Positions 1 through 3,000 of a stretch of 64,000 bases of DNA are shown here, one piece after another; positions within the stretch are counted from its first letter, which is position 1, and every line of letters starts with the position of its first letter. Origin of the DNA: Escherichia coli (GTDB taxonomy: Bacteria; Pseudomonadota; Gammaproteobacteria; Enterobacterales; Enterobacteriaceae). The position numbers are program-made. The stretch lies in assembly GCF_003790525.1 (NCBI RefSeq), contig NZ_CP033635.1; one strand, 5' to 3'.

Positions 1-3000
1 AGCTCATCCTGGGCGGTACAATCTTAGTGCTAAATGGCTGAAAAGATTGGTTGCGCATTTTGCTGAACACCACGGCGACGCGATGGAAGTCGCGCAGTGC
101 CAGCAATCGCCCAATGAACGCACCCAGCTGGCGACACTTGCGCGTCAGCATCATTTATGGGCATCACAAGGATCTGATTTTCATCAGCCATGCCCGTGGA
201 TCGAACTGGGTCGTAAACTCTGGCTGCCCGCAGGCGTTGAAGGCGTCTGGCAGCTATGGGAACAGCCGCAGAACACCACAGAGAGGGAATTATGAGCCAG
301 TTTTTTTATATTCATCCTGATAACCCGCAGCAACGTCTGATCAACCAGGCGGTGGAGATCGTGCGTAAAGGCGGGGTGATTGTTTATCCAACTGATTCCG
401 GCTATGCGCTCGGCTGTAAAATTGAAGATAAAAACGCCATGGAGCGTATTTGTCGTATTCGCCAGCTGCCGGACGGTCACAACTTTACCCTGATGTGTCG
501 CGATCTTTCTGAACTCTCGACCTATTCATTTGTCGATAACGTTGCGTTTCGTTTAATGAAAAACAACACGCCGGGCAACTATACCTTCATCCTGAAGGGG
601 ACGAAGGAAGTGCCACGCCGTCTGTTGCAGGAAAAACGCAAAACCATCGGTATGCGTGTGCCGTCTAACCCGATTGCGCAGGCGCTGCTTGAAGCATTGG
701 GCGAACCGATGCTTTCCACTTCGCTAATGCTGCCAGGCAGTGAATTTACCGAATCCGATCCGGAAGAAATTAAAGACCGTCTGGAAAAACAGGTGGATTT
801 GATTATTCACGGTGGCTATCTCGGGCAGAAACCGACAACGGTTATTGATCTTACCGATGATACGCCGGTCGTGGTGCGTGAAGGCGTAGGTGATGTGAAG
901 CCTTTCTTATAACAAATTGCGTTCCACGGATGGAAGACTATGGCAGGGAAGTTTCGCTGCATTTTGCTGTTGATAGTTGGGCTTTTTTTCTCTTCGTTGA
1001 GTTATGCGAAAAACACGGAGATCCCTTCTTATGAAGAAGGGATCTCTCTCTTTGATGTTGAAGCCACTCTGCAACCGGATGGGGTGCTCGACATCAAAGA
1101 AAATATTCATTTTCAGGCGCGAAATCAGCAGATTAAGCACGGATTTTATCGTGATTTACCACGACTCTGGATGCAGCCTGATGGGGACGCTGCACTGCTG
1201 AACTATCATATTGTTGGCGTCACCCGTGATGGTATTCCTGAACCCTGGCATCTTGACTGGCATATCGGGTTAATGAGTATTGTCGTGGGCGATAAACAAC
1301 GTTTCTTGCCTCAAGGCGACTATCATTATCAAATTCATTATCAGGTTAAAAATGCTTTCCTGCGTGAAGGGGATTCTGATCTGCTAATCTGGAACGTGAC
1401 CGGTAACCACTGGCCGTTTGAAATTTATAAGACCCTATTTTCACTCAAGTTGCCAGATATTGCGGGTAATCCATTTAGCGAAATCGATCTCTTTACTGGA
1501 GAAGAGGGCGACACATATCGAAATGGCCGCATCCTTGAGGACGGAAGAATTGAATCCCGCGATCCGTTTTATCGTGAAGATTTCACGGTCCTCTACCGCT
1601 GGCCTCACGCTTTACTTGGTAATGCCCCGGCACCACAAACGACGAATATTTTCAGCCATCTTCTTTTACCCTCTACGTCATCGTTGTTAATTTGGTTTCC
1701 GTGTCTCTTCCTGGCGTGTGGATGGTTATATCTCTGGAAGCGCAGGCCGCAATTTACGCCGGTAGATGTGATTGAAACCGATGTCATTCCGCCAGATTAC
1801 ACACCCGGCATGTTACGTCTCGATGCGAAGCTGGTTTACGACGATAAAGGTTTTTGTGCCGATATCGTAAATCTGATTGTTAAAGGAAAAATTCATCTGG
1901 AAGATCAGTATGACAAGAACCAGCAAATCCTGATTTGTGTTAATGAAGGCGCGACCAGAAATAATGCGGTATTACTGCCCGCAGAGCAGTTATTACTGGA
2001 AGCGTTATTTCGTAAAGGCGATAAGGTCGTTCTTACGGGGAGACGCAACAGAGTCTTACGCAGGGCATTTTTACGGATGCAGAAATTTTATCTGCCGCGT
2101 AAAAAGTCTTCGTTTTATCGACCAGATACGTTTTTGCAATGGGGCGGAATGGCGATATTGGCGGTCATTCTCTACGGTAACCTGAGTCCCGTAGGTTGGG
2201 CAGGAATGAGTCTGGTTGGCGATATGTTTATTATGATCTGCTGGCTTCTTCCTTTTTTATTTTGTTCCCTTGAGCTTTTGTTTGCCCGCGATGATGACAA
2301 GCCTTGCGTTAATCGTGTAATCATCACTTTGTTTTTACCGCTGATTTGTTCAGGCGTGGCCTTTTATTCTCTCTATATCAATGTCGGAGATGTATTCTTT
2401 TACTGGTATATGCCAGCGGGTTATTTTAGCGCTGTTTTCCTGACCGGTTATCTCACTGGCATGGGGTATATTTTTCTGCCAAAGTTTACCCAAACTGGGC
2501 AGCAACGTTATGCCCACGGTGAAGCTATCGTTAACTATCTTGCGCGTAAAGAGGCAGCAACACACAGTGGGCGGCGGCGGAAAGGGGAAACACGGAAACT
2601 GGATTACGCGTTGCTAGGTTGGGCAGTCTCGGCAAACCTTGGAAAAGAATGGGCAGCACGTATCACCCCATCACTCACAGCGGCTGTTCACGCCCCGGAA
2701 ATTGCCCGTAGTGGCGTTTTGTTTTCATTACAGATGCACCTGAGCCTGGGGGCCAATACCAGTTTGTTGGGGCGAAGTTATTCCGGTGGTGGTGCTGGCG
2801 GCGGGGCGGGTGGCGGAGGCGGTGGTGGCTGGTAATTAAGCTGATGTTAATCGAAACAAGCTTTAACCATAAAGATAGTGTAGTATGTTGCGCCTCAAAG
2901 CCAGGCCGATAAACGTCGAGTCGTTTACTTAAGGCCTGAAGAGTTCAAACAGACTTTACTATCAGTGAGTCAGATGTAAATTCTGACTCACTGTTGCACA

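Follow-up and report, generated by a model that had tools for sequence, protein, structure and literature searches.

Islands and prophages that target the ends of genes, among them those inserted in tRNA genes according to Campbell's insertion-site principle, carry their recombinase next to the attachment site, leave fossil ends as they decay, and can supply an outward promoter and leader from which the target gene is still expressed. The locus described here, upstream of rluB in Escherichia coli, is like them in each of these respects and in having a 16-bp direct repeat, but its target would be a hairpin in the 5' leader of a protein gene rather than the 3' end of a tRNA gene, and its outward -10 box lies antisense in conserved integrase codons. 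It also resembles leader attenuators: in homologous loci UUGUUUUUG follows the hairpin, which is located downstream of a start site and upstream of the gene and whose pairing is best in the sense RNA, and native rluB leaders of Enterobacter have canonical terminators at the same place. Unlike an attenuator, the E. coli hairpin has no U-run, no mapped 3' end among those listed in the tables discussed below, and no evident antiterminator, leader peptide or ligand, while the stem of the island version is AU-rich with a large loop. Quasipalindromes are reportedly hotspots of template-switch mutation in E. coli, as seen by Ripley and by the Lovett laboratory in laboratory mutations of reporter genes. 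Here too an imperfect repeat appears to have become perfect, a natural 2-nt insertion extends the stem from the opposite-side template, and the arms show paired changes; the difference is that we infer the process from natural variation, on which selection may have acted. Finally, as in attP sites of the lambda type, intact islands have the IHF motif WATCARNNNNTTR about 40 bp on either side of the core, one copy being the left arm of the hairpin. These sites are putative only, the inverted partner arm does not qualify as an IHF site, and the E. coli sequence analyzed here misses the consensus.

That sequence, which we call the window, is a 64-kb stretch of an E. coli chromosome (window position plus 1,323,806 gives the K-12 coordinate). 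An earlier reading of the sequence alone had pointed out a perfect 12-bp inverted repeat between yciQ and rluB, forming a stem-loop about 50 nt upstream of the rluB start with no T-run after it. All of this was confirmed. The flanking genes are those named, and the repeat, hereafter hairpin B, reads cagtgagtcaga-tgtaaat-tctgactcactg, with arms complementary at 12 of 12 positions, a 7-nt loop (TGTAAGT in K-12), and a 3' end 52 nt from the rluB ATG (3046). There is no T-run because the 8 nt that follow the stem, TTGCACAA, contain only 2 T. The coordinates of this and the other features of the region are given in Table 1. In the window, 7 inverted repeats pair perfectly over 12 bp or more around a loop of 3-20 nt, against a mean of 0.08 in dinucleotide shuffles, only 8% of which had any such repeat; the symmetry of hairpin B is far beyond chance. 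Its 12-mer has no second copy elsewhere in the window, and the palindrome occurs once per genome in 3,976 E. coli genomes.

Table 1. Features of the yciQ-rluB region, in window coordinates
Feature	Position	Strand	Description
yciQ	940..2835	+	DUF2207 membrane protein; in place of the island interior
Integrase N-terminus remnant	2871..2894	-	Eight codons, GATYYTIF (translation); RGRTYYTNF in intact copies
rluB promoter	2881..2895	+	-10 TAGTAT at 2881-2886, GC-rich discriminator, start ~2894/2895 (Romero 2014)
Hairpin A	2902..2940	+	Structured insert peculiar to E. coli; 3' of the promoter and 5' of hairpin B
Island-end element	2949..3011	+	Flank, hairpin, former U-run, GTATAC-like box; full covariance-model match
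Palindrome (hairpin B)	2963..2993	+	Arms 2963-2974/2982-2993, 12-bp perfect; 7-nt loop TGTAAAT
Degraded U-run	2994..3001	+	E. coli TTGCACAA, homologues TTGTTTTTGA (alignment)
Minus-strand extended -10	2996..3011	-	TGaTATGCT, 3011 to 3003; class II antisense start ~2996
Hairpin C	3012..3029	+	GACGCCTGGGAAGGCGAC, GNRA-type loop; adjoins the rluB Shine-Dalgarno

Published start sites were carried from U00096.2 to U00096.3 with an offset that we take to be +1976, which leaves about 1 nt of uncertainty in their position. In one dataset from one growth condition, Table S2 of Romero et al. 2014 lists a class I forward start at 1324724/5, about window position 2894, and hairpin B therefore falls at about +70 to +100 of a 152-nt leader, between the mapped start and the start codon. 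The transcript mapping that the sequence-only reading had proposed as a check thus puts the hairpin inside the rluB RNA, in agreement with its suggestion of a structural element in the 5' UTR. Romero 2014 also lists a reverse class II start at 1324826 (about 2996), for which the minus-strand extended -10 is probably a fossil of the integrase promoter; intact islands carry TGgTATACT where the window has TGaTATGCT. As RNA, hairpin B folds at -20.1 kcal/mol on the plus strand (z = -4.8) and at -21.4 kcal/mol on the minus strand, and the minimum-energy fold of the whole leader (-58.1 kcal/mol, z = -5.8) retains it. Upstream of it, hairpin A lies within a 90-nt imperfect palindrome (2874-2963) and has no counterpart in the island homologues; hairpin C, downstream, was found in nearly all of about 80 species loci.

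With its perfect 12-bp pairing at -20.1 kcal/mol, hairpin B has the stable stem of a terminator and lacks the U-rich tract, and a scan with the terminator consensus gave no match there. Among the 3' ends listed in the part of the Adams 2021 Term-seq tables that we consulted, none lies at 13267xx or 13268xx; that part gives the 3' end of rluB itself as 1327761 and a Rho-dependent end within yciQ at 1325258. The missing U-run and the missing 3' end speak against an intrinsic terminator in E. coli, in line with the earlier reading, to which the hairpin looked less like one.

Homologues of hairpin B occupy the same place in about 20 species of Enterobacterales, where they are weaker, imperfect, and followed by a U-run. 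Unlike E. coli, the homologues of other genera have TTGTTTTTG 3' of the stem. A covariance model of the island end, built from 20 sequences that are all non-Escherichia, has 2949-3011 as its sole match in the window (29.3 bits, E ~0.003, model positions 1-66). In three of the related loci (L037, L052 and L024), the gene immediately upstream of rluB encodes a tyrosine recombinase and diverges from rluB; scores for PF00589, the Phage_integrase family of Pfam, are 28.6 and 42.8 bits (cut-off 27.1). Two of the rare E. coli strains with such an island, A17 and H15, still have an intact island of about 9 kb, with a recombinase diverging from rluB that PGAP labels 'tyrosine-type recombinase/integrase'. 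At both ends of these two islands is a 16-bp direct repeat, GACGCCTGTGAAGGCG, identical to the first 16 bp of hairpin C, and the hairpin homologue sits 19 nt inside the right repeat, that is, on the island side. The window retains the right copy only. In another locus (L026) both island junctions are visible. An integrase adjoining this end in related loci, its eight-codon remnant in the window, and direct repeats at the junctions are together what is expected of a fossil attR. The -10 box of the rluB promoter is the antisense of the Tyr-Tyr-Thr codons of the remnant.

Two other readings of this region were given up. The GTGTAGTATGTGCGSCC block was at first taken for a conserved native promoter, which we reject because the block is the reverse complement of conserved integrase codons. 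The E. coli-specific segment had looked like an inserted yciQ with the hairpin as its border, but the yciQ loci of Klebsiella and the intact islands point to another history. In the literature searched, no description of this island family was found.

In the homologous stems, double changes were seen in 7 of the 12 pairs, a count that ignores phylogeny. The covariation score, which ignores phylogeny as well, was 0.22, compared with 0.12 in shuffles (0 of 500 reached 0.22) and 0.04-0.10 with slid partners; by these statistics the structure is conserved with covariation. Mismatches in the stems were G·T in 29 cases and A·C in 3, with 14 of the 29 G·U cells coming from one column pair, and the plus-strand hairpin was the stabler in 23 of 23 homologue sequences. 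Judged from these alignments, the hairpin in the homologues behaves as a structure of the plus-strand RNA. Stem energies run from -20 to -25 kcal/mol in Escherichia, compared with -8 to -18 kcal/mol in other genera, and the hairpin of the island version has no exceptional stability of its own (z = -0.75). Within Escherichia, the B2/ST131 variant CTCATTG, with a G·U pair, represents the ancestral state; strain 8178 has a 2-nt insertion that lengthens the stem to 14 bp, and one locus (L004) has two pair changes, both fully compensated.

The distribution of the element across strains bears on its importance for rluB. Of 5,426 E. coli genomes, 1,446 (27%) do not have it at all, and neither do E. 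albertii, Citrobacter and others; rluB has a different leader in all of these. Within E. coli, yciQ and the hairpin always occur together or are missing together (3,976 genomes with them, 1,446 without), and the RluB protein is unchanged in the genomes with the yciQ-less leader. The sequence-only reading had implied a conserved regulatory element of rluB and had named loss from close relatives as the observation that would speak against it; the palindrome is missing from close relatives that have rluB, and the idea of a conserved element therefore fails. Because so many strains do without it, the element matters little for rluB.

On balance, we think it probable that the palindrome is a stem-loop of the 152-nt rluB mRNA leader that descends from the end of an integrative genomic island. 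An island encoding a tyrosine recombinase of about 555 amino acids would have inserted, by way of the 16-bp core GACGCCTGTGAAGGCG, in the conserved hairpin that immediately precedes the ribosome-binding site of rluB, and would thereby have severed rluB from its original promoter. Its rluB-proximal end would have begun with an integrase start that reads away from rluB. Next would have come an imperfect hairpin, more stable in the rluB-sense RNA than on the other strand, then a U-run, a box of the GTATAC type, and finally the core. In the yciQ+ lineage of E. coli, the integrase would then have been deleted down to eight codons, whose antisense now serves as the rluB -10 box, and the U-run would have decayed. 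The imperfect hairpin would have become a perfect 12-bp palindrome, for which the simplest route is intrastrand template switching, with one arm copying the other. RNA polymerase starting at about 2894 would today read through the hairpin without terminating, and hairpin B would fold independently of its neighbors, hairpin A on one side and the hairpin adjacent to the ribosome-binding site on the other. It would be dispensable for rluB, and any effect it has, for instance a slower scan by RNase E or a polymerase pause, is probably small. Hairpin B is thus most likely a transcribed, non-terminating relic that owes its symmetry to template switching.

The strengthening of the stem after the loss of the integrase and the compensation in L004 could equally reflect selection for a functional folded RNA. 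Such an element would tune rluB in cis: it could be an obstacle to RNase E scanning, a pause site or a target of RNase III, or what is left of a factor-dependent attenuator. It would suit the place of hairpin B inside the mapped 5' UTR, the covariation and the plus-strand G·U bias of the homologues, and the retention of hairpin and U-run in lineages without the integrase (L028, L029, L087 and L084); island-free leaders also have a hairpin and a T-rich tract at the equivalent place, which in Enterobacter are canonical terminators. Nevertheless, we consider this unlikely, given that 27% of E. coli and the nearest relatives make the same RluB protein without hairpin B, that the U-run is gone from E. 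coli and no 3' end appears there in the consulted part of the Adams 2021 tables, that neither an Rfam family nor a published description was found, and that template switching yields the same compensated pattern without selection. The sequence-only reading had also offered a protein-binding palindrome, which at the DNA level could be an arm site for IHF or recombination, whether relic or still in use, or an operator through which some regulator acts on the rluB promoter or the fossil integrase promoter. The palindrome does lie between two mapped divergent starts, and the left arm of the island hairpin with its flank matches the IHF consensus WATCARNNNNTTR (as TATCAGTGAGTTA in L037, L052 and L097); the ancestral element may therefore have been mainly a DNA site. 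The left ends of the islands in A17 and H15 have an extra copy, AATCAATGAGTTA or AATCAATGAATTG, about 40 bp from the core, a spacing that resembles the geometry of lambda attP. However, the window has no match to the consensus anywhere in 2836-3045, where the arm reads TATCAGTGAGTCA (drifted further, to GGGGCA, in L004), the right arm is in no case a good IHF site, and E. coli yciQ+ strains retain no integrase. No conserved symmetric half-site was found either: the substitutions in L004 change the sequence of the arms and keep their complementarity, and an asymmetry of 29 G·T to 3 A·C is not expected of a duplex. Our literature search turned up no transcription-factor work on the site and no mention of it in ChIP or SELEX studies. 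A binding site at the DNA level is thus quite improbable.

The remaining explanations assign the hairpin to other transcripts. It might be the stabilizing stem-loop at the 5' end of an antisense RNA that starts at about 2996 from the fossil integrase promoter, with 3 unpaired nt before the stem. The reverse start at 1324826 is exactly 7 nt downstream of TGaTATGCT, this extended -10 is conserved as TGgTATACT in island copies, and on the minus strand the E. coli palindrome folds no less well. But a class II site is an enrichment without a visible transcript edge, possibly background according to the authors of Romero 2014; the minus-strand hairpin is the weaker in 23 of 23 homologues, and the common B2 variant gives A·C on that strand and G·U on the plus strand. 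With no antisense 3' end at the hairpin among the Adams 2021 entries consulted, and no product known, we think an antisense RNA very unlikely. The hairpin could also belong to the 3' end of the yciQ mRNA, either terminating it non-canonically or blocking exonucleases there; it is on the yciQ strand, 128 nt beyond the stop codon, and descends from a hairpin with a U-run. That U-run is now absent, a promoter is active between the yciQ stop and the hairpin, and the consulted part of the Adams 2021 tables lists no 3' end at the hairpin, whereas it places a Rho-dependent end inside yciQ (1325258); this reading has almost no chance of being right.

None of the known repeat or regulatory families we compared accounts for the palindrome. 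Rfam scans of the spacer returned only chance-level eukaryotic snoRNA and miRNA hits far below their gathering scores, and those of the intact island end returned no match. By eye, the hairpin resembles the ERIC/IRU core (GTGA.TC...CTTACAT), but local alignment to an ERIC copy scores best away from the hairpin (p ~0.06), and genomes carry a median of 10 ERIC cores, compared with a single copy of the palindrome. An origin from a MITE, phage or plasmid was rejected: there was no phage match, and the 'plasmid' matches were mislabeled chromosomal pieces. In a check by eye, none of the boxes for LexA, TyrR, CpxR, IscR and similar regulators fits. The left arm, GUGAGUCAGAU, agrees at 9 of 11 positions with helix 93 of 23S rRNA, the RluB substrate, which we take to read GUGAGACAGUU; the likeness is probably coincidental because the structural contexts differ.

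To return to the island reading, we tentatively suggest, with some doubt, that these islands form an undescribed family of integrase islands that targets the GNRA hairpin beside the rluB ribosome-binding site, provides a surrogate rluB promoter antisense in its RGRTYYTN codons, and uses one element both as an IHF-type bend site in DNA and as an attenuator hairpin in rluB-sense RNA. If so, the promoter and leader of rluB in K-12 would be entirely exapted island DNA. The locus is a clear example of how, even in the reference strain K-12, a housekeeping gene can owe its promoter, its leader and a striking "regulatory-looking" palindrome to the remains of a mobile element, and of how perfect palindromes in spacers can arise by template switching rather than as operators. 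The junction between yciO and rluB is an integration hotspot whose cargo varies among yciQ, Tlde1 effectors and proteins with RelA/SpoT domains, which matters when expression data for yciQ and rluB are interpreted across strains.

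The palindrome in the yciQ-rluB spacer is best described as an Escherichia-specific, perfected descendant, lacking a U-run, of the hairpin at the rluB-proximal end of an integrative island, and as now lying within an exapted rluB leader. The sequence-only reading described the repeat itself correctly: the arms are complementary at 12 of 12 positions around a loop of 7 nt, and no T-run follows the stem (two T in the next 8 nt). The hairpin has a folding energy of -20.1 kcal/mol (z = -4.8), with the opposite strand equally stable. Its 12-mer has no second occurrence within the 64-kb window. 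Dinucleotide shuffles predict 0.08 perfect inverted repeats with short loops and arms of 12 bp or more, and the window contains seven. Over its 210 nt the spacer matches that of strain 104 at 100% identity, and its sole change relative to K-12 (U00096.3; coordinate = window + 1,323,806) is A to G in the loop.

Coordinates of features in the window and in related loci
Feature	Sequence	Position	Strand	Description
yciQ stop	window	2833-2835
Integrase remnant	window	2871-2894	-	encodes GATYYTIF
Palindrome	window	2963-2993	+	cagtgagtcaga-tgtaaat-tctgactcactg
Hairpin C	window	3012-3029		GACGCCTG(G/T)GAAGGCGAC; GNRA-type loop, A·A mismatch, directly 5' of rluB Shine-Dalgarno
rluB ATG	window	3046
ORF	window	4091-5092		333 aa, not in K-12; hypothetical in RefSeq
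ORF	window	5103-5411		102 aa, not in K-12
yciQ pseudogene (internal stop); hairpin with AC insertion	L094 (E. coli strain 8178)	1-21 and 151-183
Intact island	L096 (E. coli A17)	440-9575		between yciO and rluB
Intact island	L097 (E. coli H15)	1200-9555		between yciO and rluB

The offset from U00096.2 to U00096.3 is one that we take to be +1976, from topA (1329072 to 1331048). Romero et al. report a class I forward start site at 1324724/5 and a class II reverse site at 1324826 in E. coli. Under the assumed offset these fall at window positions ~2894 and ~2996. The forward start lies 7-8 nt 3' of TAGTAT (2881-2886), with a GC-rich discriminator after this box; the reverse start has an extended -10 on the minus strand, TGaTATGCT (3011 to 3003), exactly 7 nt upstream of it. 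Other start-site datasets yielded no usable entry for this spacer. With a forward start at ~2894, the rluB leader is 152 nt long and includes the hairpin at about +70 to +100. As far as it goes, the description of the hairpin as a 5'-UTR element is thus correct. The leader folds well as a whole, and the hairpin stays intact in that fold (-58.1 kcal/mol, z = -5.8). Among the ends listed in the portions of the Term-seq tables of Adams et al. (2021) used here, none lies at the hairpin, and the rluB terminator is listed at 1327761; as far as those entries go, and given the missing T-run, the palindrome is not an intrinsic terminator in E. coli, in agreement with the sequence-only reading. The same entries include Rho-dependent 3' ends within yciQ (K-12 1325258, plus strand) and antisense in rluB (K-12 1326939, minus strand), which suggests that most yciQ transcripts end early.

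Homologues of the palindrome, roughly TACAnATCAGTGAGTTA-loop-TAACTC(G/A)TTGTTTTTGAAAGTATACCA, stand immediately 5' of hairpin C in about 20 other species, including Kosakonia, Enterobacter, Leclercia, Cedecea, Shimwellia, Pseudocitrobacter, the Klebsiella oxytoca group, Pluralibacter, Erwinia and Yersinia, and the E. coli sequence can be aligned to this stretch along its full extent. A covariance model of 20 non-Escherichia sequences, with hairpin C left out, gave one match in the 64-kb window, full length, at 2949-3011 on the plus strand (29.3 bits, E ~0.003). In the homologue alignment 7 of 12 pairs have changes on both sides, 83% of cells are paired, and the covariation score is 0.22, against 0.12 for shuffled alignments (0 of 500 shuffles reach 0.22) and 0.04-0.10 with slid partners; on this alignment the predicted helix is well supported. 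Mismatches in the ten outer pairs are strand-biased (29 G·T against 3 A·C), and the rluB-sense RNA is the stabler strand in 23 of 23 sequences, by a mean of 6.2 kcal/mol. The relatives have a less stable hairpin with imperfect pairing (-8 to -18 kcal/mol; -9.8 kcal/mol, z = -0.75, for the island copy of E. coli A17), and it is followed by a U-run, TTGTTTTTGA, where E. coli has TTGCACAA.

At several homologue loci a gene for a 554-555-aa tyrosine recombinase lies directly upstream of rluB on the opposite strand, its start codon ~15 nt beyond the hairpin homologue; rluB-adjacent recombinases score 28.6 and 42.8 bits against Pfam Phage_integrase (cut-off 27.1). Six E. coli genomes carry this gene. 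The order in strains A17 and H15 is yciO, a yciQ-less leader, GACGCCTGTGAAGGCG, an island of ~9 kb, the hairpin homologue with TTGTTTTTGAAAGTATACCA, GACGCCTGTGAAGGCG again, ACAC..., and rluB. Because GACGCCTGTGAAGGCG stands at both ends, a 16-bp direct repeat bounds the island; this repeat is hairpin C itself, doubling as the attachment core, and 19 nt separate this core from the palindrome homologue, which stands on the island side. Both junctions of a decayed island copy are visible in Kosakonia sacchari. The island encodes HTH, YagK/YfjJ, DUF4238, recombinase-family and, in A17 only, RelA/SpoT-domain proteins, the last gene being that of the ~555-aa recombinase. In intact islands an IHF-like motif (TATCAGTGAGTTA) lies in the left arm of the hairpin homologue, with a further copy ~40 bp from the core at the opposite end; it is decaying in Escherichia (TCA in K-12, GCA in the divergent Escherichia L004), and the window's yciQ-rluB spacer has no match to the IHF consensus. 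The motif GTGTGACAGC recurs near both ends of the A17 and H15 islands and may be an arm-type site.

The reading frame of the integrase is open from MVHSMANNMSHKLSHTMIRGRTYYTNF, and the window keeps a remnant of it. As this remnant encodes its eight residues on the minus strand, the rluB -10 box TAGTAT is the antisense of the Tyr-Tyr-Thr codons. The corresponding block, TTAGTGTAGTATGTGCGCCC, is also found within the intact A17 and H15 genes. The extended -10 adjoining the core on the minus strand reads TGgTATACT in the islands; from its placement we infer that it drives the integrase, and the K-12 antisense start of class II would fit a fossil of this promoter. Of more interest than the palindrome itself are two by-products, the island family and the exapted promoter; our literature search found no publication on a leader element of rluB or on an integration site adjacent to this gene. 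A 90-nt imperfect palindrome (2874-2963), centred on hairpin A (2902-2940) and with a 16-nt inverted repeat (2874-2889 and 2948-2963), is E. coli-specific and takes the place of some 18 codons at the start of the integrase; in phylogroup B2 strains it differs by substitutions and a 2-nt indel.

Of 5,426 complete E. coli genomes, 3,976 have the spacer with the palindrome, in single copy in every one. Another 1,446 have a different yciO-rluB spacer of ~100 nt and lack yciQ entirely, as do E. albertii, Citrobacter, Enterobacter and many others; with the palindrome missing from these strains and from close relatives, a conserved regulator of rluB does not pass the refutation test that came with the sequence-only reading. 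The two forms are identical only from GACGCC (3012) onward, the start of hairpin C, which occurs in nearly all of the ~80 Enterobacterales species loci retrieved and hardly varies among them. For rluB, hairpin C might serve in translation control or in autoregulation by RluB through its S4 domain. In Klebsiella huaxiensis and a metagenome contig, yciQ orthologues (55% identity) likewise lie between yciO and rluB and are followed by an integrase-codon remnant and then the hairpin and U-run, and hence yciQ occupies the former island interior. The yciO-rluB junction is clearly a hotspot, occupied by five genes in K. pneumoniae and by Tlde1-domain or hydrolase genes in other genera. Five island-less leaders of Enterobacter and Lelliottia contain canonical intrinsic terminators (for example AAAGCAGGGCGCCGCCCTGTTTTTGA) ~10-45 nt upstream of hairpin C, between a TATACT -10 box (ACGCGGCC discriminator) and rluB, a layout suggesting that a leader attenuator normally stands ahead of rluB, or that rluB and yciO have the yciO terminator in common.

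Compared with the island consensus, E. coli differs at several stem positions, and every change brings the stem closer to perfect pairing: G·U and U·G became G-C and U-A, one T-A pair became C-G, and two pairs were added at the top. The B2/ST131 allele retains the ancestral CTCATTG, giving a G·U in the sense RNA and one mismatch to the K-12 31-mer; most of the ~1,294 genomes that are one mismatch off appear to carry it. In strain 8178 a 2-nt AC insertion pairs with GT of the loop, making a 14-bp stem with a 5-nt loop. The L004 hairpin (CAGTGGGGCAGG...CTGCCCCACTG) has two pair changes, fully compensated, between otherwise nearly identical flanks. With the IHF-like motif decaying at the same time, Escherichia keeps the complementarity of the arms and not their sequence.

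In a quasipalindrome, intrastrand template switching uses one arm as the template for the other, which naturally gives rise to multi-base perfecting changes and stem-extending insertions. We favour such switching, acting on a transcribed relic, as the process that would have made the stem perfect, because the element is dispensable, its U-run is lost, and no 3' end is seen there among those listed. The main rival is that selection on the RNA fold produced the pattern and the palindrome is a functional leader element; the E. coli changes and the natural variants fit both this and template switching. A protein-binding palindrome or transcription-factor operator, also suggested from the sequence, is unsupported, as the arms change with compensation in L004 and G·T far outnumbers A·C. 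We rejected a dispersed repeat (the palindrome is single-copy, against ~10 ERIC core copies per genome), kinship with ERIC (no significant ERIC core alignment at the hairpin) and, from phage and plasmid searches, a phage- or plasmid-borne element; Rfam has no family for the palindrome.

The left arm at 2965-2975 (GUGAGUCAGAU) matches helix 93 of 23S rRNA (2595-2605), the RluB substrate, whose sequence we take to be GUGAGACAGUU, at 9 of 11 positions; chance is roughly estimated at ~0.03 before allowing for post hoc choice, and the structural contexts are unlike. A start-stop mini-ORF (ATG TAA, 2973-2979) in the hairpin top and loop, with a stem-sequestered GAG 5 nt upstream, is absent from the island homologues and probably without meaning. 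Between rluB and the cobO/btuR side lies an AT-rich insert (GC 0.32-0.41, 3950-5450) whose ORFs have no Pfam or PADLOC matches. The coding sequence of yciQ contains, in its 5' part, a perfect inverted repeat with 13-bp arms and a 3-nt loop (GAGATCCCTTCTT-ATG-AAGAAGGGATCTC, 1018-1046), which is among the four longest perfect inverted repeats of the window (13-bp arms).
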